A DNA stretch of 64,000 nucleotides from Hyphomicrobiaceae bacterium (lineage in GTDB: Bacteria > Pseudomonadota > Alphaproteobacteria > Rhizobiales > Hyphomicrobiaceae): NCBI GenBank assembly GCA_033812735.1, contig JAPXTA010000001.1, forward strand, positions 22,810 through 86,809, read 5' to 3'. The position numbers and the translations under genes were made by a program. Below the pieces are notes generated by a model. The model did not search any database. It worked only from the letters and a program-made list of their open reading frames with translations, and was not told where the DNA came from. Numbering within the stretch: position 1 is the stretch's first letter; each line of letters starts with the position of its first letter. Shown here in pieces: positions 4,059 through 26,028 of this stretch.

Positions 4059-5783
4059 ATGCCCGCCACCACCAAGCCCCTCCGCGCCGTCGACTACCTG
4101 CGCTACAGTACCGACCTGCAGAGCCCGACGAGCATCGAGGATCAGGCGCGCATCTGCCAGGAGCGCATGCAGCGCGAGGGGTGGCGGTACGTGCGATCCT
4201 ACCAGGACCGAGCGATGTCCAGTGCGTCCCGCTGGCGCCCTGATTTCCAGCAGCTCATCGATGATGCGCGGCGCGGGCAGTTCGACGTGCTCGTAGCCGA
4301 GGCGCTGGACCGCCTGAGCCGCGACCAGGAGGATCTTGCGCATCTCTACAAGCAGCTCGCCTTCTCCGACGTGCGGATCTTTACGTTGAGCGAGGGGTGG
4401 ATCAGCGAAATCAACGTTGGCATGTCTGGTACCATGGGCGCGGTGATGCTCAAGCAGCTCGCCGAGAAAACGCGGCGCGGATTGCGCGGCCGGGTCGAAG
4501 CCGGGCGCTCGGGCGGCGGCAACTCGTATGGCTACGATGTCGTCCGCAAGTACAAGGCCGATGGTGAGAGCGATCGCGGCCTGCGCACGATCAACGCGCA
4601 ACAGGCAGCGGTGATCGTTGAGATCATGTCCGACTTCGCCGCCGGGAAGTCGCCGCGCGCGATCGCAAAGGCGCTCAATGCCTGTGGCGTGGCAGGTCCG
4701 TCTGGCGGCACGTGGTGCCCGGCGGCGATCAACGGCAACGCGGAGCGCGGCACAGGCATCCTCAACAATGAGATGTACATCGGCCGCCTCATCTGGAACC
4801 GGCTGCGCTACATGCGAAACCCTTCTACAGGGAAGCGTCAGTCGCGGCTCAATCCGCCAGAGGACTGGATCATCAAGGACGTGCCTGAGCTGCGGATCGT
4901 CACGCAGGAACTGTGGGACGGTGTGAAGGCACGACAGGCGGCGACGGCCAAGAACACGCGACCCGACAAGGCGAAAGGCGATGGCAACGGCCGTCCGATG
5001 TTCTGGGAGCAGCAGCGGCCGCGGTACCTGTTGTCCGGCCTGATGAAGTGTGGCTGCTGTGGCGCAAACTTCACGAAGTATGGCGCGAGCCGCTTCGCTT
5101 GCGCCGGCTCGCGTGATCGCGGCACATGCTCGAACAAGCTGACAATCCGCGGCGACGTGCTCGAGGCGGCGATCCTGGCCGGTCTGCAGACCCGCCTGAT
5201 GGAGCCGGCGCGGTTCGAGAAGTTCGCGGCCGACTTCGTCGCCGAGACGAACCGGCAGCGCATGTCGGCATCAGCCGCTAAGGCCGGCAAAGAGGCGGCG
5301 CTGGCCAAGCTCGAGCGCCAGATCAAGCGGCTCGTCGACGCGATCGCCGACGGGGCCGATGCGATGCCCCTCAACGGCAAGCTCAAGGAGTCGGATGCCG
5401 AGCGCGCGCGCCTGGCCGCCGAACTGGAGGCGGCGCCTGACGAGAAGCCGCTCATCCACCCCGCTATGGCCATTGCCTATCGCGAGCGTGTCGCCGCCTT
5501 GGCCCAGGCACTCTACGACGAGGAGTTTGGTAGGGAAGCCTTCGAACGGCTTCGCGCGATGGTCGAGGTAGTCGTGTTGACGCCGATGGACGGCCATCTG
5601 GCCATCGAGCTTCGTGGTGAGCTTGCGGGCATTCTGCGCGTTGCCGAGAATGATGAGCAACTTACTGATCTTGCTCAGAAAAACTCGCTGCAAATCAAGG
5701 TGGTTGCGGGGGCTGGATTAAGCTTTTGCAGTCCTGGCCTCGAATGCGGTTTCTGGCATGACCAGGTTTGGGGGATTGGTTGA
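4059..5783 (+). CDS. Large serine recombinase
   Basis: It has YLRYSTDLQ (catalytic Ser), LDRLSRD, and a recombinase domain containing SYGYDVV. It also has the Zn-ribbon Cys cluster CGCCGANFTKYGASRFACAGSRDRGTCSN and a coiled-coil tail. It is a clear paralogue of the ORF at 61598-63265. Confidence 0.9.
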   Translation: MPATTKPLRAVDYLRYSTDLQSPTSIEDQARICQERMQREGWRYVRSYQDRAMSSASRWRPDFQQLIDDARRGQFDVLVAEALDRLSRDQEDLAHLYKQLAFSDVRIFTLSEGWISEINVGMSGTMGAVMLKQLAEKTRRGLRGRVEAGRSGGGNSYGYDVVRKYKADGESDRGLRTINAQQAAVIVEIMSDFAAGKSPRAIAKALNACGVAGPSGGTWCPAAINGNAERGTGILNNEMYIGRLIWNRLRYMRNPSTGKRQSRLNPPEDWIIKDVPELRIVTQELWDGVKARQAATAKNTRPDKAKGDGNGRPMFWEQQRPRYLLSGLMKCGCCGANFTKYGASRFACAGSRDRGTCSNKLTIRGDVLEAAILAGLQTRLMEPARFEKFAADFVAETNRQRMSASAAKAGKEAALAKLERQIKRLVDAIADGADAMPLNGKLKESDAERARLAAELEAAPDEKPLIHPAMAIAYRERVAALAQALYDEEFGREAFERLRAMVEVVVLTPMDGHLAIELRGELAGILRVAENDEQLTDLAQKNSLQIKVVAGAGLSFCSPGLECGFWHDQVWGIG

Positions 5784-6064: not shown

Positions 6065-8440
6065 ATGGCGAACGAAGCCGATACGTGCCGGAAGCTGGTC
6101 ACTCCCAAACTGCAGGCGGCAGGGTGGGATGCGGACCCTCATGTGCTCGGTGAACAGCGCTACATCACGGATGGGCGGATCATCCCCGTAGGCCTGCGCT
6201 ACAAACGCAAAGCGCCGAAGAAGGTCGACTATTTGCTGGGGTACCGGCGGGATACGCCGCTTGCCGTGGTCGAGGCCAAAGCGAGCGACCGGCCGGCGGC
6301 CGAAGGGCTGCAGCAGGCCAAAGACTATGCGGCCATGCTGGGCCTCAAATTCGCATACGCGACCAACGGGCTCGAGATCATCGAGTTCGACTTCACGACC
6401 GGGGTCGAGCGTAGCATCACCGACTACCCGCAGCCGGAAACGTTGTGGCGCCGCTACTGCGGGGCGGTTGGCATCGACACCCCGGAGACGCAAGAGCGCC
6501 TGCTTTCGCCTTACAATCTCACACTGGGCAAGCCGCCGCGCTACTACCAGACGATCGCAATCAATCGGACGGTCGAAGAGATCCTCAAGGGCCGGGATCG
6601 GTTGCTGCTGACGATGGCGACGGGCACCGGCAAGACCACGACGGCCTTCCAGATCTGCTGGAAGCTCTGGTCGTCGCGCTGGAATCGTAAAAGCGAGCAT
6701 CGCCGGCCGAAGATTCTGTTTCTCGCTGATCGCAACTTCCTGGTGGACGGCCCGCGAACGAAGGACTTCGCGCCCCTCAAGGACGCCATTCACAAGATCG
6801 GAGAGGGCGAGGTCTCACTCGGCCGCGAGATGTATTTCGGCATCTATCAGGCGCTTGCCGAGGACGAGCGCCGTGAGGGGCTGTTTCGGCAATTCCCGCC
6901 GGACTTCTTCGATCTCGTCATCATCGACGAGTGTCATCGCGGCAGCGCGCGCTTGGACAGCGCATGGCGCGCGATCCTCGATTATTTCGCGCCGGCCGTG
7001 AAGCTGGGCCTCACGGCCACGCCACGTTCGGATGAGAGCGCCGACACCTACGGCTACTTCGGCGAGCCGATTTACACCTATAGCCTGCGGCAGGGGATCG
7101 AGGACGGGTTCCTCGCACCTTATCGCGTCCATCGTGTGGTGTCGGAGTGGGATGCGGCGGGATGGCGTCCGACCAAGGATTTGCTCGACCGCTACGGGCG
7201 TCCGGTCCCCGACGAGGAATATCAGACGAAAGACTTCGAAAAGACCGTCGCGCTTCGTGCCCGCACGCAGGCGATTGCCAAGCACCTCCACGAGTTCATG
7301 GCCAAGACCGATCCGCTGGCCAAGACGATCGTGTTCTGCGTCGACCAAGAGCACGCGCTCGATATGGCCCGTGAGCTCGGCAATCTCAATGCCGAGGCGC
7401 GCCGTAGCCGGCCGAACTTCGTGTGCCGGGTGACGGCGGATGAGGGCGAGCGCGGGCAAGCGCATCGCGAGAAGTTCGAGGACGTGGAGCTGCGTGACGA
7501 TTCACCCGTCATCCTGACGACATCGCAGCTGCTGACGACGGGCCTCGATGCGCCAACGGTCAAGAACGTCGTGCTGGCCCGCGTCGTCGGGTCGATGAGC
7601 GAGTTCAAGCAGATCATCGGACGAGGCACCCGTGTGCGGGCGGAGTATGACAAGCTCTGGTTCAACATCATCGATTACACCGGCACGGCGACCGCCAAGT
7701 TCGCGGACCCCGAGTTCGACGGCGATCCGGTGCGCGAAGATGTGACGGATATCGGCGATCCCGTCGCCCAGCCGGAGCCGCCGGAACCGCAGGATAGCTG
7801 CGACATCCCCGAGGATGATGGTGAAGGCGGCGGCGTCATCGAGCCCGATGCACCGGATGTGCCGCGCAAGCTCTATGTGGATGGCGGGGAGGTTCGCATC
7901 ATCCATCACCAAGTCCAGGAGATCGATCCAGCCGGACACGTTCTACGAACGACGCGCTATGAGGACTATGCCGGCGATCGCGTGCGGGTGTTGTGCCCGA
8001 CCGTGTTCGACCTGATGTCGAAATGGGCCGATCCGGCGCAGCGCTCTGAGATCATCCAGCGCCTCAAGGATGAGGGCGTCGAAATCGACGCTGTGATGGA
8101 AGCGACGCGGCAGCCCGAGGCTGATCCATTCGACCTGTTGTGCCATCTCGCCTTCAACGCGCCGCTGCGGACGCGGCGGGAGCGTGCCCGAATGCTGCGC
8201 TCCCGGCGCAAGGACTTCTTCGAGCAGCACGGACCGAAGGCGCGTCAAATTTTGTCGGACCTTTTGGACAAGTACGCCGATCACGGTGACGCACAGTTCG
8301 AGATCCCGGAGATCTTCGACGTCTCGCCGCTCGCCGAGCACGGCACTTTCGATGAAATCGCCCACGCATTCGGCGGGCCGGAGAAGCTGGGTAGGGCCGT
8401 GCGCGATCTGCAGAGCCTGCTCTATCAGGAGACCGCCTGA
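6065..8440 (+). CDS. hsdR: Type I restriction enzyme, R subunit
   Basis: The N-terminus MANEADTCRKLVTPKLQAAGW is typical of HsdR. SF2 motifs are present: MATGTGKT, IIDECHRG, LGLTATP and QIIGRGTR. The gene lies directly upstream of hsdM/hsdS. Confidence 0.92.
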   Translation: MANEADTCRKLVTPKLQAAGWDADPHVLGEQRYITDGRIIPVGLRYKRKAPKKVDYLLGYRRDTPLAVVEAKASDRPAAEGLQQAKDYAAMLGLKFAYATNGLEIIEFDFTTGVERSITDYPQPETLWRRYCGAVGIDTPETQERLLSPYNLTLGKPPRYYQTIAINRTVEEILKGRDRLLLTMATGTGKTTTAFQICWKLWSSRWNRKSEHRRPKILFLADRNFLVDGPRTKDFAPLKDAIHKIGEGEVSLGREMYFGIYQALAEDERREGLFRQFPPDFFDLVIIDECHRGSARLDSAWRAILDYFAPAVKLGLTATPRSDESADTYGYFGEPIYTYSLRQGIEDGFLAPYRVHRVVSEWDAAGWRPTKDLLDRYGRPVPDEEYQTKDFEKTVALRARTQAIAKHLHEFMAKTDPLAKTIVFCVDQEHALDMARELGNLNAEARRSRPNFVCRVTADEGERGQAHREKFEDVELRDDSPVILTTSQLLTTGLDAPTVKNVVLARVVGSMSEFKQIIGRGTRVRAEYDKLWFNIIDYTGTATAKFADPEFDGDPVREDVTDIGDPVAQPEPPEPQDSCDIPEDDGEGGGVIEPDAPDVPRKLYVDGGEVRIIHHQVQEIDPAGHVLRTTRYEDYAGDRVRVLCPTVFDLMSKWADPAQRSEIIQRLKDEGVEIDAVMEATRQPEADPFDLLCHLAFNAPLRTRRERARMLRSRRKDFFEQHGPKARQILSDLLDKYADHGDAQFEIPEIFDVSPLAEHGTFDEIAHAFGGPEKLGRAVRDLQSLLYQETA

Positions 8441-8443
8441 CGC

Positions 8444-9997
8444 ATGGCACGCAAGCCCAAAGCAAACGGAGCCGCACCGACGACGTCGCAGTCGCTCGGC
8501 AGCCTGCTCAAATCTGCGCGCGATATCATGCGCAAGGACAAGGGGCTGAACGGCGACCTCGACCGGCTGCCAATGCTGACTTGGATCATGTTCCTGAAGT
8601 TCCTCGACGACCTCGAGGCGCAGCGCGAAGGCGTAGCGAAGGCGAAAGGCGAGCGCTTTCGGGCGGCGATCGAGGCGCCGTATCGCTGGCGGGACTGGGC
8701 GGCGAAGCGCGACGGCATCACGGGCGACGAGCTTCTGGCCTTCATCAATCAGGATAGCGCGGTGGCGCGGCCGGACGGCACCAAGGGGGCTGGCTTGTTC
8801 GCATATCTGCGCGCACTGACCGCCACGAATGGCGACAAGCGGCGCGACGTGATCGCCACGGTCTTCAAGGGCGTGCAGAACCGCATGATCAACGGCTATC
8901 TGCTGCGCGACCTGCTGAATAAGGTGGACGGTATCCACTTCACGGCCAGCGACGAGCTACACACGCTGGGCTCGCTCTATGAATCCATGCTCCGCGAGAT
9001 GCGCGATGCGGCTGGCGATTCCGGTGAGTTCTACACACCTCGCGCTGTCGTTCGTTTCATGGTGAAGGTGACGGACCCACGCCTTGGGGAGACGGCCCTC
9101 GATCCGGCGACGGGTACGGGTGGCTTTCTGGTGGAAGCCTTCGAGCATCTACGTGGGCAGGTGAAGACCGTTGCCGATCGACGCAAGTTGCAGTCGGGTT
9201 CATTGCTCGGTTGTGAGCCGAAGCCTCTGCCGTTCTTGCTTGGACAGATGAACCTCCTGCTGCACGGTCTCGATGCGCCGGAGATCGATCCGGGCAATGC
9301 TCTGCGCTTCAAACTGTCGGAGATCGGCGAGCGCGAGAGGGTTGACGTCATTCTGACCAACCCGCCATTCGGCGGCGAGGAAGAGAAAGGCATCCAGGGC
9401 AACTTTCCGCCCGATCGCCAGGCCTCGGAGACGGCGCTGCTGTTCCTGCAGCTCATCATGCGCAAGCTGAAGCGAACACCGAGCCTCAAGGGGCAGCATG
9501 CCCGCGCGGCCGTCGTCGTGCCGAACGGCACGCTGTTCGGCGATGGCGTGTGCGCCCGCATCAAGGAGGACCTGCTCAAGGAGTTTAATCTCCACACCAT
9601 CGTGCGTCTGCCGAACGGCGTCTTCGCGCCTTACACATCGATCCCGACCAACATCCTGTTCTTCGACAGGTCAGGACCGACGGAAAGCGTCTGGTACTAC
9701 GAGCAGCCGCTGCCCGAAGGACGACGTGGGTACACGAAAACTCAGCCGATGCAGATCGACGAATTGCAGCCATGCCTGGACTGGTGGGGCGCGCGTGACG
9801 AGAACGAGCGCGCATGGAAGGTTTCGGTCGGTGACCTTCTGGCAGCTGGATGCAATCTCGACCGCAAGAACCCGCGCGCGAAGGTCGACATTGAACACCT
9901 GCCGCCAGAACAGCTGGTTGACAGCATCATCGCCAAGGAATCCCGCATCGGCGAGCTGATGGCTGAGATCAAGGTCGCGCTGCAGGAGCGCGCGTGA
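8444..9997 (+). CDS. hsdM: Type I R-M N6-adenine DNA methyltransferase, M subunit
   Basis: It has the HsdM N-terminal signature LDRLPMLTWIMFLKFLDD, the SAM motif DPATGTGGFL and the catalytic motif LTNPPFGG. Confidence 0.95.
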   Translation: MARKPKANGAAPTTSQSLGSLLKSARDIMRKDKGLNGDLDRLPMLTWIMFLKFLDDLEAQREGVAKAKGERFRAAIEAPYRWRDWAAKRDGITGDELLAFINQDSAVARPDGTKGAGLFAYLRALTATNGDKRRDVIATVFKGVQNRMINGYLLRDLLNKVDGIHFTASDELHTLGSLYESMLREMRDAAGDSGEFYTPRAVVRFMVKVTDPRLGETALDPATGTGGFLVEAFEHLRGQVKTVADRRKLQSGSLLGCEPKPLPFLLGQMNLLLHGLDAPEIDPGNALRFKLSEIGERERVDVILTNPPFGGEEEKGIQGNFPPDRQASETALLFLQLIMRKLKRTPSLKGQHARAAVVVPNGTLFGDGVCARIKEDLLKEFNLHTIVRLPNGVFAPYTSIPTNILFFDRSGPTESVWYYEQPLPEGRRGYTKTQPMQIDELQPCLDWWGARDENERAWKVSVGDLLAAGCNLDRKNPRAKVDIEHLPPEQLVDSIIAKESRIGELMAEIKVALQERA

Positions 9998-11175
9998 TGG
10001 GGGCGGGGTGGGCGATGGTGCCGCTCGGCGAGGTCATGCGCACGGCGGTCGATCCGCACAAAGTCGATGCTTCCCGCAGTTATCCGAACCTTGGCATCTA
10101 CGGCTTCGGACGCGGCGTCTTCTCCAAGCCCGCGATCGAAGGCACGAACACGAGCGCCTCGACTCTCTATCGCGTCCGGGCCGGCCAATTCATCTACAGC
10201 CGGTTGTTCGCGTTCGAGGGTGCCTACAGCATCGTGCCGCCCGAGTGCGATGGCTACTTCGTCTCCAACGAGTTCCCGACGTTCGACTGTGATCCACGGC
10301 GACTGGACTCCCGCTTCCTGTCGTGGCTGTTCAAGCGCCCGTCGCTATGGCGCGCTATTGCCGAGCGCAGCACCGGCATGGGCGACCGCCGCCAGCGCAT
10401 CCACCCCGAGCAGGTTCTGGCGGAGGAGGTCCCACTCCCCGCCCTCGACGAGCAGCGCCGCATCGTCGCCCGCATTGATTCCCTCGCCGCTAAGATCGCC
10501 GAGGCGCGCGGGCTGCGGGAGGACGCTGCAAGCCAAACGACCAAGCTGCTTGTCGCTATGGCTCACCGAGGCGACATGACCCGAAGTGCCAAGCTGCGTG
10601 ACGGTTGGCGACCGGTTCGGCTTGGCGACGTCGTGGAGGAGTTCAGTGATCCTCACGTGGTCACGACCGATCGGAGCTATCCCAACTTCGGCATCTTCAG
10701 TTTCGCACGCGGCCTCTTCCCCAAGGCACCCATCAGCGGTCTGGAGACCTCGGCCACTCGGCTATACCGCGCTCGGACCGGTCTCTTCATCTACAGCCGC
10801 TTGTTTGCTTTCGAGGGTTCTTACGGCATCGTCGGCGATGAGTTCGATGGCTGCTTCGTCTCGAATGAGTACCCGATGTTCGCCTGCAAGCCGTCGGATG
10901 TGTTACCCGACTTTCTTGCGGCCTACTTCCAGTCGCCAGAGGTGTGGCGCGCCATCGCCGAAGGCAGCTCCGGTCTTGGTGATCGCCGCCAACGCGTGCA
11001 GCCCGCCCAGGTTCTGCGCCACGAGTTCATGCTCCCCCCGATGGAATGGCAGCGCAAAATCGCGCAGGTTCGAAAATCGGTAGCAGCGCACGCAGCTGCG
11101 CATTCCGAGGTCGTGCCCGAACTCGATGCGCTCTTGCCCGCCATCCTCGACCGAGCGTTCAAGGGGGGGCTTTGA
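9994..11175 (+). CDS. hsdS: Type I R-M specificity subunit with two closely related target-recognition halves
   Basis: The start overlaps the hsdM stop (GTGATG; the ATG at 9997 is the likely start). Two repeated halves, residues ~8-190 and ~205-390, share blocks such as SYPNxGIxxFxRGxF and FIYSRLFAFEGxY. Confidence 0.88.
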   Translation: MMGAGWAMVPLGEVMRTAVDPHKVDASRSYPNLGIYGFGRGVFSKPAIEGTNTSASTLYRVRAGQFIYSRLFAFEGAYSIVPPECDGYFVSNEFPTFDCDPRRLDSRFLSWLFKRPSLWRAIAERSTGMGDRRQRIHPEQVLAEEVPLPALDEQRRIVARIDSLAAKIAEARGLREDAASQTTKLLVAMAHRGDMTRSAKLRDGWRPVRLGDVVEEFSDPHVVTTDRSYPNFGIFSFARGLFPKAPISGLETSATRLYRARTGLFIYSRLFAFEGSYGIVGDEFDGCFVSNEYPMFACKPSDVLPDFLAAYFQSPEVWRAIAEGSSGLGDRRQRVQPAQVLRHEFMLPPMEWQRKIAQVRKSVAAHAAAHSEVVPELDALLPAILDRAFKGGL

Positions 11176-11254: not shown

Positions 11255-11584
11255 TTGATGGAACTGTCTTTCGTTACCGAAGAGCTGAGGGCGATATGCG
11301 AAAGTCGTCGCAAGGCAGTCAAGCGTCTCGGACACGACGGGTCCAGCGCTTTGGAGATGGTTTTGGCGGATATCGAAGCCTGTCAATCTCTCGAGGAGAT
11401 TGAGTCCATCTATGGCGACCTGCCGACGGTCACAGGAACGGAAAGCTGGATGCTGTCGTTGGATGGCGCGATATCAGTTCGCTTCACATCCGGCCACGTA
11501 AAGACGCCCAGGCGAAAGACCGGTGACGTCGACCGAAGCAAAGTTACGCGCCTGAGGATCGAAGAGATTGAGGTTCTGTCATGA
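11255..11584 (+). CDS. HigB-like / plasmid-maintenance killer-like small protein (tentative toxin)
   Basis: This 109-aa protein has a stop that overlaps the start of the next gene (ATGA). Its length and layout resemble HigB-family killer proteins, and its partner has a HigA/VapI-type HTH. The assignment is from memory only. Confidence 0.4.
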   Translation: MMELSFVTEELRAICESRRKAVKRLGHDGSSALEMVLADIEACQSLEEIESIYGDLPTVTGTESWMLSLDGAISVRFTSGHVKTPRRKTGDVDRSKVTRLRIEEIEVLS

Positions 11585-12690
11585 CATCTGAATTTGCTCC
11601 GACGTGGTTCTCGCCGCCCGGTTCAACTCTTTCGATGATGATGGCACGCCAGGGCATCAGTGCCCGCGAACTGGCAACGACGCTGAAGGAAGATACGTCA
11701 TTCGTTTTGCGCCTGCTCGCAGGTACAGAGCGGATCGAGAACCAAGTTGCTAAGCTCTTGGCGAAGAACGTCGGAGCTACACCGGAATTCTGGACTTCGC
11801 GTCAGGCCAAATACGACGCCGCATTGGATAGGACAGCGAGCAAGATCGCATCGGACGCGGCGACGACTTGGCTCCGTTCGCTTCCACTCAAAGACATGCG
11901 TGCAGGCGGATGGATTCAACCCGCGACGCGCGAGCATTCGCTTTCAGCCGCGCTTGCGTACTTCGGCGTCACTAGCCCTGAAGAGTGGCGCGAAAGGTAC
12001 GCTGAGCACGCGACCATGTACTCTTACCGCACGTCTCAGTCGTTTGAATCGAAACTCGGTGCGCTAGCTGCTTGGTTGCGCCAGGGAGAACTTCAAGCCG
12101 CTGGGATAAAGTGCGCAAAATGGAACCCAGAGACGTTTCGTTCAGCGCTAGTGGAGATTAGAAGGCTGACCCGACTAAAGAGCCCGTTGATGTTCATGGC
12201 CAGGTTGCGGGATCACTGTGCGTCTTCCGGGGTGGCGGTCGTGTTCATCAAGGCGCCCGCAGGCTGCCGCGCCAGCGGTGCAACTCGCTTCATCAGTCGT
12301 GACAAGGCGATGCTCATTCTGAGCTTCAGGCACCTCTCTGATGATCATTTCTGGTTTTCATTCTTCCACGAGGCGGGGCATCTGCTTCTGCATGGTTACG
12401 ACTCGACGTTTGTCGACGGCGATGCTGCGGAAACCACAGAGAAAGAGAAGGAAGCAAATCACTTCGCTGCCGGGACGTTGATCCCGCTTCCGGAGCGAGG
12501 GCACCTTGAACGGTTGCGCGCGGACGTGAATAGCGTTGTCCGCTTCGCCGTATCGATCGGAATTTCACCTGGTATTGTGGTGGGGCAAATGCAGCATGGG
12601 GGGCTGTTGGGACCAAACCAACTGAATGGATTGAAGCGTCGCTACACATGGGACGAAGTGCAGAAGGCTGTCGATCAGCTCAGCCTTTGA
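11581..12690 (+). CDS. HTH (HigA/VapI-like) fused to an ImmA/IrrE-family Zn-metallopeptidase domain
   Basis: The N-terminal segment PGSTLSMMMARQGISARELA...ATPEFWTSRQAKYD is a HigA/VapI-type HTH. The C-terminal segment FFHEAGHLLLH (HExxH) followed by EKEANHFAAGTLIP is typical of COG2856 peptidases. Confidence 0.8.
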   Translation: MTSEFAPTWFSPPGSTLSMMMARQGISARELATTLKEDTSFVLRLLAGTERIENQVAKLLAKNVGATPEFWTSRQAKYDAALDRTASKIASDAATTWLRSLPLKDMRAGGWIQPATREHSLSAALAYFGVTSPEEWRERYAEHATMYSYRTSQSFESKLGALAAWLRQGELQAAGIKCAKWNPETFRSALVEIRRLTRLKSPLMFMARLRDHCASSGVAVVFIKAPAGCRASGATRFISRDKAMLILSFRHLSDDHFWFSFFHEAGHLLLHGYDSTFVDGDAAETTEKEKEANHFAAGTLIPLPERGHLERLRADVNSVVRFAVSIGISPGIVVGQMQHGGLLGPNQLNGLKRRYTWDEVQKAVDQLSL

Positions 12691-13600
12691 AATGCACAAA
12701 GACATCGGGGCTTTTCTGCCAGTTGCAGAGAGAGTCCTCCATAGCCTGCATACCGATGTTGAGATCGGCGTTGAGCTCAATCGTCCAGACATCGAGGTCT
12801 CTCACCGATAGCAGGGCCTTGCGATCATTGCCGAACAGGAGACGCGCTCCAGCGACGGGGCCCGTAGCACCCTTGAGGTAAGCTGACCCTGGCGTAATGG
12901 GCGCAAGGTCCAATCGACCCACGAGGGCCAGAAAGTCGAACTTTCCAAGCCGCCCGAACTGCCGGACATTCATGTCCCGATAGAAGGCATCAAATATCGA
13001 GTTGGGATCGTTCCCGCCTGCCTGCACCAGCCGCGCGACAGTCTGCCGATGTGCGCCCCCTGGTCCGATCCACTCCAAATAGCTTTGGAAAACCTTATCG
13101 GTTCCCTCATCGGAATCAGTTCTAAGCGAAGCGTATTTGCGATGGTTTCCAAAGGCGCCCCCAATGCGGTCCTGGTGATTTGTCAGCCAAACAACGAATG
13201 CTTGCGGATCGTTGCTGTAAACGGGCCACGTCCAAGTTCTACACCCAAGCCCTGAGTAAACGTCACGCAGGCGACGCCAACCGTGACGGCCGTGTTTCCC
13301 GAAGTGGACGGACAGAAACGTGATCCAAAACGCTTCATCCAAATCGCCATTTCGATGATGCAGGATGGCCGCTCGCTCTGGGTCGAATAGATCGTTGTTG
13401 GGATCAACGCGATCGGCACTCAGAGGACGGCGCCTGAGCAACGCTGTGTACTCAAGCCTTCGCAAACTTGCGACCATCTGCCAAGCAAGCGTGTCGCGGC
13501 GAGCGCGCGTAGCTATGCCCGGCAGGGCGCGATGCCGTCGCGCATGTAGCTGAAGCGCGGCTGAGAGGCGGTCCGCCACGTGCTGTCGATTAGGCCACAC
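12680..13600 (-). CDS. Hypothetical 306-aa protein co-translated with the TS-fold enzyme. It may be an aGPT-Pplase-like base-modification protein (tentative).
   Basis: A GTG start at 13600 lies 9 nt after a GAGGA that overlaps the stop of the upstream gene. The protein is basic. The C-terminal block GKFDFLALVGRLDL...GATGPVAGARLLFG reminds me of aGPT-Pplase families, but this is unverified. Confidence 0.5.
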   Translation of the reverse strand: MWPNRQHVADRLSAALQLHARRHRALPGIATRARRDTLAWQMVASLRRLEYTALLRRRPLSADRVDPNNDLFDPERAAILHHRNGDLDEAFWITFLSVHFGKHGRHGWRRLRDVYSGLGCRTWTWPVYSNDPQAFVVWLTNHQDRIGGAFGNHRKYASLRTDSDEGTDKVFQSYLEWIGPGGAHRQTVARLVQAGGNDPNSIFDAFYRDMNVRQFGRLGKFDFLALVGRLDLAPITPGSAYLKGATGPVAGARLLFGNDRKALLSVRDLDVWTIELNADLNIGMQAMEDSLCNWQKSPDVFVHFKG

Positions 13601-13612
13601 AGATTGTTATCC

Positions 13613-14716
13613 TCAAAATGGCAAGCGGGGTTGACGTGGTAGGGACGGTGAGCGTGGCTTCATTTGAGTTCGTCTATCGACGTAGGTGCCATAGCCTTTG
13701 AAACTAAGTGACGCTTTCAGCCTTCGGATCTTAGCGGCGTCGCCTGTTGCTTCGAAGATCTGCAGCAGCTTGACGAGATCGAGCCAGTAAGCATCCAAGC
13801 CGCGAACCTCTTTTGACAGGGCTCGCCCCGCACGGATATCAGCTTCTGCTTCGAGGAGACGACCAATGGCTATCCAGGGGTCGCCCAATGGCATGGCCGG
13901 CATGGGCACGGTCTGTTGAATGCCCTCGGATAGAAACTGCTCGGCGGCAGAGCGGTGCACATCATAAAGGTGCAGGCTCCCAACGAATTGCTTGTATTCG
14001 CCAACTTCCGCCCCCACTGATCTGGCGACGATCTCCTGTATCATCGTGAAGCAAAAGATATCGTGCGGCAGGCCCAGATATGCGTCTTGGGATCGCATCG
14101 TGACCATTAGATCCAGCTTTCCCCGGCGCAGAGCAAACTGCATCGCCAAGGTGCATGGAACCTCCGTATGCCGCCGCGCCGTGTCGGATGCTTCGAAAAT
14201 CTGAAGAACCGCACGACGGCTATCGGGCTTCTGCTTGAGATTTTCGATTAACGTGCGAACTTGGTCATGACTTGGATGGCTGAACAGTCGACGACCATAC
14301 CCGCCATGCACAGTTTCGCCGTCTTCGGACTCGTCTTTATAGCGATCGATGTAGTACTCAATGAACTCCAGCCGATTGTCGCGCGAAAGATACCAAAGCA
14401 GCTCTCCCAACGAGCTGAATGGTCGCCCTCTTGTTTCAGTGCGGCTCAACCGTGCTCTCGGATCTTTTAGCTCCAGAAGCATGCCGCGGCGCTCGTAAGC
14501 AATGCCCAGCTCCTTGGACCTCGATGACTGGGTCTCATCAGCACCCACCAGCAGCCGTGGCAGAAGCTTTCGGCACAAGTCGTCAAGAGTAGCGGCGACG
14601 AGGCGCATGGCAAGCATCCTGCGGCAGCATTCGAGATACCACGAAGACACAGCTGGCAGCAGCGAATCACTGCGGTAGCTGTGCTTGATTGTGGGGTACG
14701 ACGGCGGCGTCGCCAA
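13613..14716 (-). CDS. Thymidylate-synthase-fold enzyme, likely dCMP/CMP-directed (hydroxymethylase- or methylase-like)
   Basis: TS motifs are present: ELLWYL, EVPCTLAMQF (catalytic Cys), MRSQDAYLGLPHD and GSLHLYD. The Asn of the canonical LGLPFN is Asp here. The true start is probably internal, at Met34 or Met37 (about 14608-14617). Confidence 0.8.
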   Translation of the reverse strand: MATPPSYPTIKHSYRSDSLLPAVSSWYLECCRRMLAMRLVAATLDDLCRKLLPRLLVGADETQSSRSKELGIAYERRGMLLELKDPRARLSRTETRGRPFSSLGELLWYLSRDNRLEFIEYYIDRYKDESEDGETVHGGYGRRLFSHPSHDQVRTLIENLKQKPDSRRAVLQIFEASDTARRHTEVPCTLAMQFALRRGKLDLMVTMRSQDAYLGLPHDIFCFTMIQEIVARSVGAEVGEYKQFVGSLHLYDVHRSAAEQFLSEGIQQTVPMPAMPLGDPWIAIGRLLEAEADIRAGRALSKEVRGLDAYWLDLVKLLQIFEATGDAAKIRRLKASLSFKGYGTYVDRRTQMKPRSPSLPRQPRLPF

Positions 14717-15045
14717 GTGACCACAGTCACGCAGAACTCTGCTGCATCGGCGATGATCGGCGCTTGGGCTTGTGTTGGATTAGGGAAGCGCCGTTTGCAT
14801 GTCGTGTGCAGGGTCGGCAAACGGGCGGCAGGTGCGCCGATGTGCACTAGGCAGATTTCAGTCGTATAACGTATTTTATGCTGAATTGATGTTATATTTC
14901 ATATAGTTGCCTATGGTTATAAAGCCGCATTATGTTAAGCGATGATGTTTCGCAGGCTACGCGGCCTTGGCCATAAAATCAGTTTATAAATACACAATCA
15001 CCATATACATTGCGAATATCACTTAATATTTTAAACGAGCCTGCC

Positions 15046-15204
15046 ATGAAATCATCGGAAGAAATAATAGACAAACTGCAAGATCTTACTCTGGCAGCCG
15101 CCATGCGACGCTTATCGGTTCTGATCTTGTGCCTGATAAGCCTATTCGTAGGTCTCAGTGTAGGTTTGCTGGTCGGCATTCCTGTCGGTCGGGGCTATTT
15201 CTGA
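15046..15204 (+). CDS. Small (52 aa) protein with a C-terminal transmembrane helix
   Basis: The ATG at 15046 lies in an AT-rich region. The hydrophobic stretch is VLILCLISLFVGLSVGLLVGIPV. There is no homology evidence. Confidence 0.3.
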   Translation: MKSSEEIIDKLQDLTLAAAMRRLSVLILCLISLFVGLSVGLLVGIPVGRGYF

Positions 15205-15255
15205 TCCCGAGCCTGGGCGTCCACCTATTTCTCACTCATTTTTGTAATAATTATC

Positions 15256-18000
15256 GTGATTCGACCTTTTGTACTTAACCACAATACGTTTCTCCGTCCT
15301 GACAGCGCTCATGCCTCTGAGGCCGATCTCGATAAGCTTCTGCGGGACATCGGAGGGAACTCCGGAAACAGCTACATCACTTATGCGCTGGCACGGCAAA
15401 CACCACTAGATCGCCTCGATGGCGTGGCCAATGTGTTCGCCGACGGTGCCATCGATAGTATCAACGTCGCTGCCGTCAACTCCAAGTACACACATGTCTA
15501 TCTGGTGCTGCAGGATCATCTGCGACTGAGCACTGGTGGATTGCCGTGGGAGGCTCTGGCGCAGTTGATCGCCAAGTTTCGAATTCCGGTCGTTGTATTC
15601 AGTCTCGGCGCGAATAGCTTCGGGGAAACGCCCCGGGAGCTCGCAGCAGCATTGCCGGCTGAAATGGTCGCTGCGTTTCGCGAGATTTCCGATCACTCGA
15701 TGTCGTTGGGCATTCGGGGCGCTTTCACCGCAGAGGTTCTCGATCATCTCGGCATCTCGAACTACGCGGTTGTCGGTTGCCCAGCTTGGTTCGAAGCTGG
15801 ACCGGGTCGAGTCGTGCCGTACCCAGAATTCGACGCAACCAAGCCGATCGCCGCTACGGGCCTTTTCTCACATGCGCAGACAGATCAGATACACTTTCTG
15901 CTTCAAGACGAGACGCTCTTTTTACGTAGCATGTTCCACGGCACGTGTCCTGCGCCGGATGCTGCAGCCGGCCTGATCCACGGCTATCCACACTACGGGC
16001 CTTGCGCGGTCTCTGCATTTTATGCCGGACGCATGCATTTCTACGCCGACATGGGTGCTTGGAAGAAGGCTCTGTCAAAGGGTTTCTCTTTCGCCGCGGG
16101 GACCCGCGTGCATGGAGCCTTCGCCGCCATGAACGCTGGCTTGCCGGCCTTGTGTACCTCGGGTGATGCGCGTTCGAGGGAGATGTGCGAGCTGTTCAAG
16201 CTGCCGCACCAGCCAGGAATTTGTGCTGCGGATCTGCCTCTCGAACGGCTCTATGAGTTGGCCGATCCAACCGCTGCCAACTCGGCTTATCCGCAAGCCT
16301 ATGACAATTTCATATCGTGGATGCAGAGTCTTGGCATCCATTCGGTCCAGGGACTTCATGCAGACCCTAAGTGGCCGATCGGCCGAATCGAGCCGCGACC
16401 CAAGCTGGAACAAGACCAACTGATGATGTCGGCATTGACTCTCGCGGGCAAGACCGAAGATGAGCAAGAGTCAAACGTAGTGAGCGAGGTATCACTAAGC
16501 GGCAATGAGCGGACGACACCACTGCTGTCAATCTGCATTCCAACATATAATCGAGCTGGACATCTGGAGAAGCTCTTGCGCTTCCTGTCCGCCAATATTC
16601 TTTCGAACACGCGCTATTCGATTGAATTGATCGCCGTCAATAATGCATCGACAGACAACACTCGAGAGATGCTCGATGGTCTGCATGACGATCGCATTCG
16701 CATCGTGCACCGGGAGGCGCATCTTCCGACGGCCGAGGAGAACATCTTCCACAGCGTCGGGCTCTGCAACGGCGAGTTTGTCTGGTTCCTCGGCGATGAT
16801 GATGTGCCGGTTCTGGAGAATTTCGACGACCACTATGCGCTGATCGAGGCCGGCACGCATGACTTCTACCTCTTTAATCCCGCGATAGCAGACAGTCGCG
16901 GCACCATTGCCGTGCTGCAGAATGTGAAGATGAACCGCGCATTATTGGAGTTGCCGATCGCCGACTTGATCGGGATGATCGGTTGCTTTTTCACGCTTGC
17001 GGGCATTTCGAATGGCATCATCCGGCGGAGCCTTGTGACGACCGAACGTGGTCTCCACTTCATGGGCGTGTCCCAGATCTACAGCATGGTTGCCTGGATG
17101 ATCGACGCAGTGAAGACGGCCCGGTCCGTGTTCGTGAATGCCCCGCTCGTCTACTATCGCGAAAACGACTACAGCGATGGCCATTGGCAGCGTGTAGCTG
17201 CTCGACTTGGGGTTGGCGATCAATATTTCTGGTCGACGGGCGTCTTGGCTCTGCTTCGCGAACTCATTGCTCAGGGTGCGCTAATGCCTGCAGATGTAGG
17301 GCGGATCAAGGAGGTCAACAGGGAAGGCCAGCGGCACAACTTGATCGACGACATGATGTTCAAATTCTACTTGCAGCTCAAGACGGCGCGATCGGATGCT
17401 TCATCACGCCAGCAGATTTCGATCGAGGAAATGACAGACGTGGCCCGCTTCTTCGCCGAGGTCGAGCCGACGACATTCGATCTCGTTGAATGCTTGAAAA
17501 GAATGGCCCTGGCAAACGGGGATTTCGAGGACTTGGAACAGCAGTTCTTGCAGCGCTTCGGTGAGCGTCAAGCCGCCGGGGTCTGGGTGCGTGCGGTGCA
17601 ACGGATCTACAAGGGCTATGAGGTCATCAAGACTCCTGTGCAATTCACGGCGATCCGGTTGGGGTATGGGTCCCGCGATCGCATCATGATGACGGTCGAT
17701 CCTCTGTCATGCCCTCCTCACGTGCTTGCTGCGCCAACCTGGCCCGAACTGGCGGCGCAACTCGATCTCCAGCCGTATTTTGTCGAACCTCCTTGTGAGC
17801 CGCCGCCGATCGTCACGCCGGTTCATGTTCATGTGCCGCCATTGGGTGACGAGCACGGCCGCCAAGCTGCCATGCTGAGTGAGGCACTTGGACGCCTTAA
17901 TTCAGTTTACAACTCGAGCTCCTGGCAGCTCACCTATCCGTTGCGAGCGGTGCGGGTATTGCTCAGTAGGATCGTCAGGACGATCTTTGGTCGTTCGTAG
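15256..18000 (+). CDS. Bifunctional glycan-modifying enzyme: polysaccharide-pyruvyl-transferase-like N-terminal domain plus GT2 glycosyltransferase domain
   Basis: The N-terminal domain has GNSGNSYI and GTRVHGAFAAMNAGLPAL (PS_pyruv_trans-like). The central domain has LSICIPTYNRAGHLEKLL...AVNNASTDNT...FLGDDD (GT-A/GT2). GTG is the only possible start after the upstream stop, and there is no obvious RBS. Confidence 0.75.
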   Translation: MIRPFVLNHNTFLRPDSAHASEADLDKLLRDIGGNSGNSYITYALARQTPLDRLDGVANVFADGAIDSINVAAVNSKYTHVYLVLQDHLRLSTGGLPWEALAQLIAKFRIPVVVFSLGANSFGETPRELAAALPAEMVAAFREISDHSMSLGIRGAFTAEVLDHLGISNYAVVGCPAWFEAGPGRVVPYPEFDATKPIAATGLFSHAQTDQIHFLLQDETLFLRSMFHGTCPAPDAAAGLIHGYPHYGPCAVSAFYAGRMHFYADMGAWKKALSKGFSFAAGTRVHGAFAAMNAGLPALCTSGDARSREMCELFKLPHQPGICAADLPLERLYELADPTAANSAYPQAYDNFISWMQSLGIHSVQGLHADPKWPIGRIEPRPKLEQDQLMMSALTLAGKTEDEQESNVVSEVSLSGNERTTPLLSICIPTYNRAGHLEKLLRFLSANILSNTRYSIELIAVNNASTDNTREMLDGLHDDRIRIVHREAHLPTAEENIFHSVGLCNGEFVWFLGDDDVPVLENFDDHYALIEAGTHDFYLFNPAIADSRGTIAVLQNVKMNRALLELPIADLIGMIGCFFTLAGISNGIIRRSLVTTERGLHFMGVSQIYSMVAWMIDAVKTARSVFVNAPLVYYRENDYSDGHWQRVAARLGVGDQYFWSTGVLALLRELIAQGALMPADVGRIKEVNREGQRHNLIDDMMFKFYLQLKTARSDASSRQQISIEEMTDVARFFAEVEPTTFDLVECLKRMALANGDFEDLEQQFLQRFGERQAAGVWVRAVQRIYKGYEVIKTPVQFTAIRLGYGSRDRIMMTVDPLSCPPHVLAAPTWPELAAQLDLQPYFVEPPCEPPPIVTPVHVHVPPLGDEHGRQAAMLSEALGRLNSVYNSSSWQLTYPLRAVRVLLSRIVRTIFGRS

Positions 18001-19176: not shown

Positions 19177-19751
19177 GAAGCGTCCCCCGGCTTTGGACCA
19201 GGTGCCGCGCGGGAGCTGCCATGTAGACGTGCATCGGTATCCGGATCACGCCGGGGCGTTTCGCTTGGCCACTCCTGCGGGATTGGATGGGCCGCGGCAA
19301 AAGCCGCGACGCGGGCGGCGATGGTGGCGGCCGGCAGGCGGATGTCATCGGTGAGCTTGAAGTAGCGGTAGCCGAGACGGGCATAGATATCGGTGAGATT
19401 GCCCCACAATCGCTCGGAGATGCGGAAGCTCTCGACACCGTTCCGGCTCGTCCAGCCGACTGGCGGCAACACATTGAGTGCGTCGGTAAATTCCGCTTCG
19501 GTGACCTCGCTAACGTCGCGCTTGTAGCGCGCGGCGCCTGCAGCATCGGCCAGTTTCCAGGCCTCCTCGAACGCCATGCGCTGAGCCAGCGGATAGCGCT
19601 CGCGGACCTGTATTTCGTTCTCGGAACAATGCAGTGTCAGCCCATCGTCGGGATGAATGAGATCGAGCACCGTCGTTTCGCCGGGCACGTACCAGCATTC
19701 GGTGAAGGCGGTGTAGGGGAGCCTGCGGCGCGAAGATTGTTCGTTCGTCAT
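19173..19751 (-). CDS. Conserved plasmid/ICE hypothetical protein (192 aa)
   Basis: It is coupled by ATGA to ardC upstream and to the next gene downstream. Confidence 0.6.
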   Translation of the reverse strand: MTNEQSSRRRLPYTAFTECWYVPGETTVLDLIHPDDGLTLHCSENEIQVRERYPLAQRMAFEEAWKLADAAGAARYKRDVSEVTEAEFTDALNVLPPVGWTSRNGVESFRISERLWGNLTDIYARLGYRYFKLTDDIRLPAATIAARVAAFAAAHPIPQEWPSETPRRDPDTDARLHGSSRAAPGPKPGDAS

Positions 19752-20872
19752 GCGCGCGGTCCCTTCTGACGAGAGGCAGGTGCCGAACGCGGCACCTCGT
19801 CCGGTCGCCCCGGCAGTTCGCGCGTCGCGATAGGAGCGGTGTGATCGGGCGCGGCGGCATCACGAGGTGACGGATCGGTCCCGGGTTGCAGGCCGATCAG
19901 GTAGTCGACGGCGCGGGTGGCGAAGGACGCGGCGGAGAAGATCGCCTTGTCGTCGTCTTTCAGGACCTGGAGCCACGAAGCGCAGTACTGCGCATGATCG
20001 ATGCGCGGCGTGTTGGTGACCTCGAGGTGGGCGCACAGGAACGCCGCACCCAGCTCGGCGACCAATTCTTCGAAGGCGTAGGACTTGTCGGCGAAGCGCT
20101 CACCGAACTGGCGGTTCAATCTGTGATCGGCACCGCTGCCGTGAATTTCTTCGTGGAGCAGGGTCGAGTAGTAGGCTTCCGTCGGTGTCGATGATGCAGT
20201 CCCAGTGAACAGCGCGCGCGGCGGCATCTGGATGAAGTCGCCATCACCGCGGGAATCCCGGTGCCGATAGAAGGCGCGCTGGCCACCTTCACGGACCTCA
20301 ATGCCGACGGCGGCGACGAAGGCATCGACGCGTTCGAGGCGCTGCGTGAGATCGGTGCGCGGAACGGCAGGCGGCAGCACTTTGGCGCGGAGCTCGTCGG
20401 GGGCGTCGACCTGATCGATGTTGAACACCCAGGCGGGCTTAGCGAAAAGACGCTTCGGGTCCTCGTCAGAGTCCTCACTCGACGGCGGTGCCGCTTCCTT
20501 CTGGGATTTGGGAACCCACTCGCCATACTTGACGATGAGGGAGCCTTTCTCGCCCTTGCGCACCTGGGCGCCGAGCTCCTCGTATTGCCGGTAGGTGGCC
20601 CAGACCTGATGCTCGAACTTCTTGGCGTCGGCATCGATCCACAGCGAGAGGATGTTGGAGCCGCGGTAGGGCTTGTCGGTCAGTGCGTTCTTCGGCAGCG
20701 TGAACGCGACGCCCGGACGATGCCAGGGCATCTCGAAGGTACCGGCACCGGCGGCGATGGCGGCGGCGATCTTCTCTGTGATGGCCTGATGAACATCCAA
20801 TCTCGGCGAGCGTGGAGAGGTGTCGTCGAGGGCCTGGTAGGTTCGGGGTTTGCGGGGTTTGTGTTTCGGCAT
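19748..20872 (-). CDS. ardC: ArdC-like antirestriction protein (ssDNA-binding N-domain plus metalloprotease-like C-domain)
   Basis: The N-terminus has ITEKIAAAIAAG...MPWHR...KPYRGSNILSLW. The C-terminus has the HExxH motif LLHEEIHGSG. Confidence 0.85.
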   Translation of the reverse strand: MPKHKPRKPRTYQALDDTSPRSPRLDVHQAITEKIAAAIAAGAGTFEMPWHRPGVAFTLPKNALTDKPYRGSNILSLWIDADAKKFEHQVWATYRQYEELGAQVRKGEKGSLIVKYGEWVPKSQKEAAPPSSEDSDEDPKRLFAKPAWVFNIDQVDAPDELRAKVLPPAVPRTDLTQRLERVDAFVAAVGIEVREGGQRAFYRHRDSRGDGDFIQMPPRALFTGTASSTPTEAYYSTLLHEEIHGSGADHRLNRQFGERFADKSYAFEELVAELGAAFLCAHLEVTNTPRIDHAQYCASWLQVLKDDDKAIFSAASFATRAVDYLIGLQPGTDPSPRDAAAPDHTAPIATRELPGRPDEVPRSAPASRQKGPRA

Positions 20873-22815: not shown

Positions 22816-23094
22816 ATGACCAGGAAACCTTCGTCACGCCCGGCGACAACCCAGTCTGCGATCTGCGATGCCGATCTCACGGAGGCGTGGTGGAACGGCC
22901 TCACAGTGAGCGAGCGGAAGGCTTGGAACGAGCGACTGGCTGCGCAAGGTCAACAGCCAACAGCGGATGCTGCCATGGCCTTGCACTACGTCGACATGTT
23001 CTGGGCTGCCGTCCGGCGGCATCATCAGCATCAAGCGAAACTCGTCGCGGAAAAGATCAGGCTCAGACGCTGCGGCACCTCCGCACTAGGATAA
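22816..23094 (+). CDS. Small hypothetical protein (92 aa)
   Basis: The ATG at 22816 follows GAGAGTGAGCGG. The gene converges on cap5. There is no homology evidence. Confidence 0.3.
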
Positions 23095-24258: not shown

Positions 24259-24755
24259 CGTGACAGCTCCGCATTTTCAGTGTTGGGGGAAGGAGGCTCG
24301 GAAAATCTGGTGCGCGGGCGTCGTCGGCGCGTCGAGATGTCGGGGTGTACGCCGCCGCCGTTCCACTCACCGGTCGCGAGCCAATCCTCGAAGTAGAACA
24401 ACCAGAGGCTGGTCCACGGCACGATGGTGCGGTCGAGCCCGAGGCTCGGATTCCATTCGCCTGTGCGCGGCAGGTAGAGACAAAGCCGTGGCGGCTTCTG
24501 CTCGTAGACGTGCGGCAGCCGTCGTCCGTCGGCGAGCGCATTGAGATCGGGGCTATCGATATAGACGGCGGGCGTCAGCCCTTGGCGATAGTCGATGCGG
24601 GCCGCATAGAGCCGCGACAGCGGCGACGGTGATGCCTCGAACTTCCAGATAAGGCGGCCCGCACGCAACGTCCCGTGCCCCGCCGCGATCGGGTTCATCC
24701 GTAAAGCGTAGAACTGCTGGGCAGCGGTCAAAGGACGGGGTGGCGGCGCGGGCAT
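24255..24755 (-). CDS. E2-like (UBC-fold) CBASS accessory protein, Cap2-short type
   Basis: [15 protein letters not shown] has His-to-Cys spacing identical to the UBC HPN...C motif. The gene sits between the CD-NTase and Cap5 genes with near-abutting or overlapping ends. No E1 or JAB domains are present. Confidence 0.6.
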
Positions 24756-24759
24756 GGCC

Positions 24760-25986: not shown

Positions 25987-26013
25987 CACGTCCTCTCGAG
26001 TCGTTACCCTGCG

Positions 26014-26028
26014 GAACGCGCACCGAAC
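26014..26028. promoter_or_regulatory. GAAC-N7-GAAC direct repeat: alphaproteobacterial LexA (SOS) box candidate, or alternatively an ECF -35-like GGAAC element
   Basis: The sequence GAACgcgcaccGAAC lies 28 nt upstream of the CD-NTase start. It sits in the ~180-bp divergent region shared with the sigma-like gene. Confidence 0.4.

Follow-up and report, generated by a model that had tools for sequence, protein, structure and literature searches.

Hypermodified bases (hydroxymethylcytosine, hmC, hydroxymethyluracil, hmU, and their derivatives) are known as a phage trick against restriction. The thymidine hypermodification pathway of phages M6, ViI, PhiW-14 and SP10 comprises a dUMP hydroxymethylase of the thymidylate synthase (TS) fold, a 5-hydroxymethyldeoxyuridine (5-hmdU) DNA kinase, as well as an aGPT-Pplase of clade 2, the amino acid:DNA transferase (AADT). 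In T4, the dCMP hydroxymethylase gp42 converts deoxycytidine monophosphate (dCMP) to 5-hydroxymethyl-dCMP (5hm-dCMP), and the pathway also includes a dCTPase, a deoxynucleoside monophosphate (dNMP) kinase and a glucosyltransferase. The related enzymes MilA and BcmA belong to the mildiomycin and bacimethrin pathways. The same enzyme families are found here in chromosomes, plasmids and elements resembling integrative/conjugative elements (ICEs), as part of a 3.4-kb cassette of four genes in two converging pairs. The cassette is described from a stretch of 64,000 nucleotides of a Hyphomicrobiaceae bacterium (assembly GCA_033812735.1, contig JAPXTA010000001.1, positions 22,810 to 86,809; hereafter the window). 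One gene pair encodes a TS-fold enzyme and a clade-3 aGPT-Pplase (Pplase3), and the other a small, putatively HigB-like protein and a HigA-type helix-turn-helix (HTH) protein fused to a metallopeptidase. The sequence-based assignments of the two enzymes are strong. The biological role is read more tentatively: the cassette may be an inducible conflict system, most probably anti-phage, built on C5-hydroxymethyl-cytosine chemistry and a PD-lambda-2-like switch, a reading to which not quite an even chance is given.

PD-lambda-2 is a three-gene system derived from a toxin-antitoxin (TA) locus, for which abortive infection has been validated. Its HigA-HTH-peptidase component B is toxic alone and is rescued by the HigB-like component A, and the P4-antitoxin-like component C is required for defense (Vassallo et al. 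2022, PMC9519451). The cassette and PD-lambda-2 share the order of a small gene, putatively HigB-like in the cassette, upstream of a HigA-HTH-peptidase gene, but component C is missing from the cassette and a convergent TS/Pplase3 operon is attached instead. By analogy, the cassette looks like the A/B core of PD-lambda-2 with the third component replaced by the TS/Pplase3 operon.

In the window, the enzyme pair occupies the minus strand. The TS-fold enzyme is encoded at 13613-14608 and the AADT-like Pplase3, of 306 residues and with a GTG start, at 12680-13600. The two genes are separated by a junction of 12 nt (13601-13612). As the initial annotation had pointed out, and as can be read directly from the sequence, the stop of the first gene lies within a GAGGA (TGA within TGAGGA) and the GTG follows 9 nt later. 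The homologues of Pplase3 begin with a matching M/V-W-P sequence, and the two genes appear to be translationally coupled. The maximal open reading frame (ORF) of the TS-like gene reaches TTG 14716, and the initial annotation had accordingly placed the gene at 13613-14716. Its start is most likely ATG 14608, giving 331 residues, because an AGGA lies 8 nt 5' of this codon and the alignments with homologues start at residue 36-37 of the long ORF. At one of the other loci, L016, the alignment of the TS homologue begins precisely at the start of the ORF. The second pair is on the plus strand. The small acidic HigB/RelE-like protein of about 108 residues (putatively PD-lambda-2A-like) is encoded at 11255-11584, and its stop overlaps the start of the gene at 11581-12690, which encodes the PD-lambda-2B-like protein of 369 residues, a HigA-type HTH fused to an ImmA/IrrE (M78) metallopeptidase. 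This gene and Pplase3 converge, and their 3' ends overlap by 11 nt. The intergenic region 5' of the TS-like gene (14609-15255) is presumed from its position to carry the promoter and control sequences of the enzyme operon. A promoter scan of this region returned a sigma-70-like match on the minus strand at 14902-14873 that is not above chance.

Species-representative genomes with the cassette number at least 440. A scan with one genome for each species gave 440 loci, of which 80 were fetched and compared. The TS gene is located directly upstream of Pplase3 on the same strand at 76 of these 80 loci, and the contigs of the remaining 4 end there, which establishes the conservation of the pair in other genomes. 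In most of the loci that have only these two enzyme genes the gap between the alignment ends is 3-78 nt. When the flanking ORFs of the 80 loci and the window (81 loci) were clustered, exactly two more genes proved to be conserved. Both lie on the strand opposite to Pplase3 and converge on it. The HTH-M78 gene (about 367 residues) is present at 80 of the 81 loci and the small gene (about 110 residues), 5' of the HTH-M78 gene, at 72. The stops of Pplase3 and the HTH-M78 gene are -29 to +32 nt apart at 79 of the 80 loci that have both, with a median overlap of 4 nt. The initial annotation had treated the two enzyme genes as a unit and the TA-like pair as a separate neighbor. The link between the enzyme genes stands, but the unit consists of four genes and the TA-like pair belongs to it. 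The same tail-to-tail layout of four genes is found on 10 plasmids of Alpha- and Gammaproteobacteria, Actinomycetota and Spirochaetota, which are also the top 10 plasmid matches for both the TS-like and the HTH-M78 proteins, and on every one of the 27 IMG/VR contigs with a gene for a Pplase3 relative. Apart from the four, no gene is conserved at the 81 loci, so that a phage-style kinase, dCTPase or polymerase is lacking; a companion dNMP kinase and dCTPase are likewise missing from the 27 contigs, and no kinase is conserved in 117 loci, in agreement with the earlier remark that a set of dNMP kinase, dCTPase and DNA polymerase is lacking.

The surroundings of the cassette vary. The 139 nearest flanking proteins fall into 132 different Pfam families, among them type IV secretion system coupling proteins, transposases, UvrD/GajB, Mrr and HNH proteins, and the PADLOC output for the same proteins is dominated by many GajB models for three proteins. 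The flanks are unrelated between loci, and the four-gene cassette, which is conserved across phyla, is best explained as a self-contained and horizontally mobile unit.

Individual loci show further features. At 24 of the 80 loci (for instance L025, 12420-12785), an extra ORF of 121-140 codons without a Pfam domain lies just 5' of the small gene on the same strand. These loci belong mostly to Rhizobiales and Sphingomonadales, and the ORF is absent from the window. At two loci, insertion sequence transposases of the rve and Mutator families are found between the TS-like gene and Pplase3 (L011, 8615-9796; L027, 8627-9895), and these cassettes are presumably inactivated. On a plasmid of Leptospira interrogans (L083, 5920-6853), the annotation splits Pplase3 in two, suggesting a frameshift or decay.

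The TS-fold protein matches the Pfam family Thymidylat_synt (PF00303) with E 3.8e-28 and 98.8 bits, the cut-off being 24.3. The solved protein nearest to it is the mildiomycin-biosynthesis CMP 5-hydroxymethylase MilA, with E 9e-44 and an alignment that runs through the C-terminal extension; for canonical TS structures E is about 1e-20. Overall, its sequence has more in common with MilA than with canonical TS or T4 dCMP hydroxymethylase. The motifs EVPCT, RSQD, LGLPHD and GSLHLYD, on which the initial annotation was built, are all found in the translation of the ORF at 13613-14716(-). In HMMER alignments, the Asp of LGLPHD falls opposite the Asn that a canonical TS has at this point ('rsadvflgvpfn', 6auj) and opposite MilA's Asp186, and a MAFFT alignment with E. 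coli ThyA places it at N177, so that the position claimed earlier for this residue is upheld. The same alignment shows a Glu at L143 and the retention of C146, R166, S167, D169 and R126; E58, H207 and Y209 (ThyA numbering) are also present. Among 77 cassette TS homologues aligned with E. coli ThyA, the residues found are Cys at C146, Asp at N177, Arg at R166, Ser at S167 and Asp at D169 (the window enzyme included), each in 76 sequences, and Glu or Asp at L143 in 68. At R126, Arg occurs in 53 homologues, including that of the window, and Lys in 21.

An Asp at position 177 selects cytosine, and an acidic residue at 143 accompanies hydroxymethylation, giving access to water, while D169N is the mark of the 5-hydroxy-dCMP synthases of the RB69 gp48 type (PMC13326640). 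Ser167 and Arg126 confer a preference for deoxyribose; MilA and BcmA, which prefer ribose, carry Ala176 and Lys133 instead, and the A176S/K133R mutant of MilA switches to dCMP (PMC5175136). Since Asp177, the acidic residue 143, D169 and the combination of Ser167 and Arg126 are all present, the window enzyme carries the complete residue signature of a dCMP 5-hydroxymethylase. The signature speaks for dCMP, and not CMP or uracil, as the substrate, and for hydroxymethylation, and not methylation or hydroxylation, as the reaction. Of the earlier proposal of a 5-modified cytosine or possibly uracil, the cytosine part is thus retained and the uracil part is not. The phosphate-binding residues R166, S167, R126 and R127 are kept in the cassette enzymes, and a mononucleotide substrate is therefore indicated. 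The predicted chemistry is that of T4 gp42, which has the same Asp at N177, acidic residue at L143 and Ser/Arg combination. MilA and BcmA have the Asp and the acidic residue in common with the cassette enzyme and differ in the pair that sets the sugar preference, whereas the hydroxymethylases of the phage thymidine pathway carry the uracil-type residue. A 5-hydroxy-dCMP synthase was considered and ruled out, as the D169N exchange is required for it and Asp169 is retained.

A housekeeping ThyA, standing beside unrelated genes, is likewise ruled out by the Asp at 177, the Glu at 143 and the scores against the NCBIfam thyA equivalogs, which are 30-89 bits with cut-offs of 108-576 (the best is 88.7 bits, with a cut-off of 327). 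RefSeq does label the homologues 'thymidylate synthase', but the linkage to Pplase3 is invariant and the genes are on accessory elements, so that the probability of this explanation is close to nil.

The clades of aGPT-Pplases were reportedly defined by Iyer et al. in 2013. The protein encoded next to the TS-like enzyme matches PF18746 (aGPT-Pplase3) with E 1.2e-105 and 353.3 bits (cut-off 25), its residues 34-306 aligning with positions 2-279 of the 279 of the profile. The initial annotation had suggested a resemblance to aGPT-Pplases from the C-terminal block GKFDFLALVGRLDL...GATGPVAGARLLFG; this block is found in the translation of the ORF at 12680-13600(-), and the resemblance proves to extend over the whole profile of this family. 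The protein also matches PF18724 (ADDT) with E 1.7e-66, and both Pplase3 and gp51 of phage M6, a glycine:DNA transferase, match the ADDT profile end to end. The family is highly conserved, with a length of about 306 residues, a median pI of 9.6 and 2,803 matches at E <= 1e-5 among the candidates scored. No relative is found in 50,697 sequenced phage genomes.

In the clade-2 enzymes M6 gp51 and ViI gp247, a Cys with a nearby Glu (Glu-x3-Cys) is essential. The proposed AADT mechanism is an attack of the Cys on C6 of 5-phosphomethyl-dU in DNA, upon which the phosphate leaves, an exocyclic methylene is formed and an amine or hydroxyl adds to it. The characterized AADTs require the 5-hmdU DNA kinase, which supplies the leaving group, and every characterized relative of Pplase3 works on DNA polymers (PMC8989533). 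E288 and C292 do not vary across an alignment of 22 Pplase3 sequences, and when MEDSLCNWQK of the window protein is aligned with VETVLCKWK of M6 gp51, they fall on the essential Glu and Cys of the phage enzyme. The cassette thus resembles the phage thymidine pathway in combining a TS-fold enzyme, a predicted hydroxymethylase, with an aGPT-Pplase, in the end-to-end ADDT match and in the essential Cys/Glu. It differs in that its aGPT-Pplase belongs to clade 3, in lacking the 5-HMUDK kinase, the pyridoxal phosphate-dependent enzyme and the radical-SAM enzyme, and in having the HigB-like/HigA-M78 pair. An AlphaFold2 (AF2) model of Pplase3 (pLDDT 93) matches phage proteins with AADT domains in a viral structure library (E 1e-4, TM about 0.5) and, weakly, endonuclease III.

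A variant with five genes bears on the target of Pplase3. At 18 of the 80 loci (e.g. L063, 9198-9998) and on the Leptospira plasmid (L083, 5133-5936), a gene of about 266 codons is located between the TS-like gene and Pplase3. These loci belong to Acidobacteriota, Verrucomicrobiota, Chloroflexota, Planctomycetota, Gemmatimonadota and one gammaproteobacterium; none is alphaproteobacterial, and the window does not have this gene. The middle gene has 2,813 homologues. It has no Pfam match, its sequence finds nothing meaningful in the PDB, and at the sequence level it matches none of the solved glycosylases. For its AF2 model, of moderate confidence (pLDDT 78), all 50 PDB matches listed belong to the uracil-DNA glycosylase (UDG) superfamily (TDG, UdgX, SMUG1, family 4 and MUG), with probabilities of 0.9-1.0, E of about 5e-3 and TM of 0.4-0.55. 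The comparison by hhalign with E. coli Mug aligned the GxNPS motif alone. The protein carries the motifs GLNPSN and NHNLQSS, which we take to correspond in place to GINPG and the second motif of MUG and TDG. The model thus suggests a UDG-superfamily fold for the middle gene product, a fold that is shared with Brig1 and Brig2, which are defense DNA glycosylases, as is Dag; Brig1 and Brig2 excise modified pyrimidines from phage DNA. The presence of this predicted UDG-fold gene at other loci is the best indication that the business of the cassette is with DNA. Owing to the AADT-like fold, the basic character of the family and the UDG-fold gene of the variant, Pplase3 most likely acts on DNA.

The 369-residue protein of the second pair matches Peptidase_M78 with E 4.7e-9, the HigA family TIGR02607 with E 3e-6 and HigA structures with E 1e-5. 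Its best match among the PADLOC models is PD-Lambda-2_B (PDLC03982), with E 3.6e-22. The matches to RmrA and capP are weaker, and that to RmrA, the HTH-M78 antitoxin that has an adjacent toxin in RosmerTA, covers the peptidase region only, with E 9e-9 or weaker. The HExxH motif is unvarying in all 80 HTH-M78 homologues. The small protein has no PDB sequence match and no match to a PADLOC model, that of PD-lambda-2 A included, and its family profile has no match in Pfam up to E 5. The profile aligns in full length (hhalign probability 97.7%, E 1.6e-12) with proteins that carry the NCBI annotation 'killer suppression protein' or 'RelE/ParE family toxin'. On other plasmids, the genes of these proteins lie directly beside stand-alone HigA-M78 genes, on their upstream side. 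It is from this alignment with annotated neighbors that the putative HigB-like assignment is taken. As the small protein is acidic (pI 5.2), a role as neutralizer would fit it better than that of a ribosome-dependent RNase.

Pairs of HigB-like and HigA-HTH-M78 genes without the enzyme operon occur on other plasmids (L085, L086 and L087), and the switch module therefore also exists alone. The neighbors of these stand-alone pairs are restriction-modification (R-M) subunits, a P-loop NTPase or a ThiF/multiubiquitin locus.

If the cassette is an inducible conflict system, it may work as follows. The HTH-peptidase/HigB-like pair would be the switch, and possibly a toxic effector, which silences the enzyme pair as long as no invader or DNA damage has been sensed. 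The TS-like enzyme would then convert dCMP and methylene-tetrahydrofolate to 5hm-dCMP. Cys292 and Glu288 of Pplase3 would attack C6 of a 5-(hydroxymethyl)pyrimidine, most likely in DNA, to generate an exocyclic methylene, onto which the enzyme would transfer a nucleophile or on which it would become trapped. A more specific proposal, which is considered unlikely in this exact form, is that the cassette is the first kinase-independent, cytosine-directed member of the AADT world and is used by cells and not by phages. Once the PD-lambda-2-like switch fires, the host-encoded dCMP hydroxymethylase and Pplase3 would create or attack 5hmC in DNA, and phage replication would be blocked by the resulting new hypermodified cytosine or by an enzyme covalently bound to DNA. 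If this were true, it would be a case of immunity from a base hypermodification chemistry that is so far known only as phage counter-defense.

Several results weigh against the conflict-system reading. The most serious is the absence of a kinase. The characterized AADTs need the 5-hmdU kinase, and phage TS homologues were co-expressed with a dNMP kinase to bring their product into DNA; as neither is conserved here, nothing in the cassette accounts for how 5hm-dCMP would lead to a DNA substrate. Three ways round this difficulty can be envisaged: Pplase3 might work on the unphosphorylated group, host kinases might be used, or the hmC- or hmU-containing DNA of a foreign phage might be the substrate while the TS-like enzyme acts on the nucleotide pool. 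The Foldseek comparison of the Pplase3 model with the PDB gave no significant match, and DNA binding is only inferred. The Lys found at R126 in 21 of the 77 TS homologues, as in MilA, means that the sugar preference may vary within the family. PADLOC has no model for the TS-like enzyme or Pplase3, and the third component of PD-lambda-2 is absent from the cassette. Finally, a comparison of 17 loci revealed no operator shared by the upstream regions of the TS-like gene and the small gene.

The initial annotation had offered three functions for the enzyme pair, namely self-DNA hypermodification or anti-restriction, a defense that alters the nucleotide pool, and a metabolite pathway. Sequence alone does not separate them, although the last appears the least likely. 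In a defense without action on DNA, the TS-like enzyme would, upon induction, drain or convert dCMP, and Pplase3 would convert 5hm-dCMP further as a mononucleotide, so that phage replication is starved of dC nucleotides or a toxic or signaling nucleotide arises. Nucleotide-depleting defenses, dCTP deaminase and dGTPase, are established. The mononucleotide phosphate-binding residues of the TS-like enzyme, the lack of a kinase that would route the product into DNA, and the close spacing and apparent coupling of the TS and Pplase3 genes all agree with such a defense, and MilA and MilB provide a precedent in which the hydroxymethylated mononucleotide made by a TS-like enzyme is then the substrate of a second enzyme (PMC5175136). 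It is nevertheless judged rather doubtful, because the characterized relatives of Pplase3 all act on DNA polymers, the Pplase3 family is strongly basic and the extra gene of the five-gene variant has a predicted DNA-glycosylase fold. Moreover, dCMP is not the main bacterial route to dCTP, and its depletion alone would therefore be a weak block.

Still less probable is the hypermodification of the DNA of the cell or of the mobile element, in which a 5-substituted cytosine would serve either to mark self epigenetically or to coat the DNA against restriction. The enzyme pair does parallel the steps with which phage pathways of base hypermodification begin and end, the cassette is carried by plasmids, ICE-like elements and predicted prophages, and in the window the element encodes ArdC and the cassette adjoins an R-M system. 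However, there is no dNMP kinase, dCTPase or dedicated polymerase that would enrich the modified base, and no conserved reader or nuclease partner that would make a self mark useful; the attached TA-like HTH-peptidase switch suggests tight repression and not constitutive marking, and no relative was found in the 50,697 sequenced phage genomes. A MilA/BcmA-like secondary-metabolite pathway, leading to a nucleoside or pyrimidine antibiotic derived from 5-hydroxymethylcytosine, would account for MilA being the best solved relative, C-terminal extension included, and for the weaker TS-like matches on Streptomyces plasmids. It is very improbable given the Ser167/Arg126 pair in place of the Ala176/Lys133 of MilA and BcmA, the lack of a conserved glycosidase (of the MilB type or other), methyltransferase, transporter or other biosynthetic gene, flanks that differ at every locus, and conserved partners that are a TA-like switch and a protein resembling DNA enzymes.

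Copies of the cassette number in the hundreds, that of the window being one of them, and Pfam already lists the partner family. In comparison with the characterized systems the cassette is new in being cytosine-type, kinase-free, borne by cells and mobile elements and coupled to a TA-like pair; of the T4 pathway it also lacks the dCTPase and the glucosyltransferase. The literature searched contains no description of the four-gene architecture, the PD-lambda-2-like coupling, the family-wide cytosine/deoxyribose signature or the UDG-fold variant. The DefensePredictor report (Science 2026) describes a predicted, unvalidated defense system that has aGPT-Pplase and HTH domains and a homologue of a known defense gene, and a validated system of E. 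coli whose domains are TS, dNMP kinase, 5-hmdU kinase and NMAD. The validated system, as described there, has kinases and no aGPT-Pplase, and the aGPT-Pplase candidate can be compared with the cassette by its domain description only. If the conflict-system reading is correct and the cassette is defensive, bacteria would have turned phage-style C5-pyrimidine chemistry on invaders, and a first function would be assigned to the clade-3 aGPT-Pplases, of which there are thousands and for which no structure has been solved. A chemical question raised by the cassette is how an AADT-like enzyme would work on a cytosine derivative with no kinase of the kind on which its characterized relatives all depend; being small and self-contained, the cassette can be cloned and tested directly.

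The window as a whole suggests a part of an ICE with a defense island, because a recombinase, ArdC and a relaxase occur together. A large serine recombinase is encoded at 4059-5783, the ArdC anti-restriction protein at 19748-20872 and a relaxase of the MobA/VirD2 type at 34174-36345. A Type I R-M locus occupies 6065-11175, in which the gene at 9994-11175 is the presumed HsdS by its position and two-half repeat appearance, with no Pfam match at E 1e-5. A CBASS-like locus (23086-27933) comprises a SAVED-HNH effector at 23086-24258 (PADLOC E 9.5e-157), an SMODS/DncV-like CD-NTase at 24760-26100 and a separate M78 peptidase gene at 27103-27933, which may encode a regulator of the CapP type. A protein of 485 residues with an AbiEii nucleotidyltransferase toxin domain (E 3e-46) is encoded at 29557-31014. 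These genes bear out the location on a mobile element in a defense island that had been proposed for the cassette. The R-M setting noted at the same time holds for the window, where the Type I locus is nearby, but the adjacency is not conserved: genes resembling HsdM occur within 10 kb at only 3 other loci, and a conserved link was rejected.

Divergent from the TS-like gene, at 15256-18000, is a gene for a protein of 914 residues with polysaccharide pyruvyl-transferase and GT2 glycosyltransferase domains. A link with the cassette, by which a sugar would be placed onto hmC, was considered and rejected, as no relative of this gene is found in the 117 cassette loci, and the glycosyltransferase is probably unrelated cargo. 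The GC content is 54-58% over 11-18 kb of the window and 62-65% on either side, which is consistent with a separate acquisition of the cassette and the neighboring glycosyltransferase.

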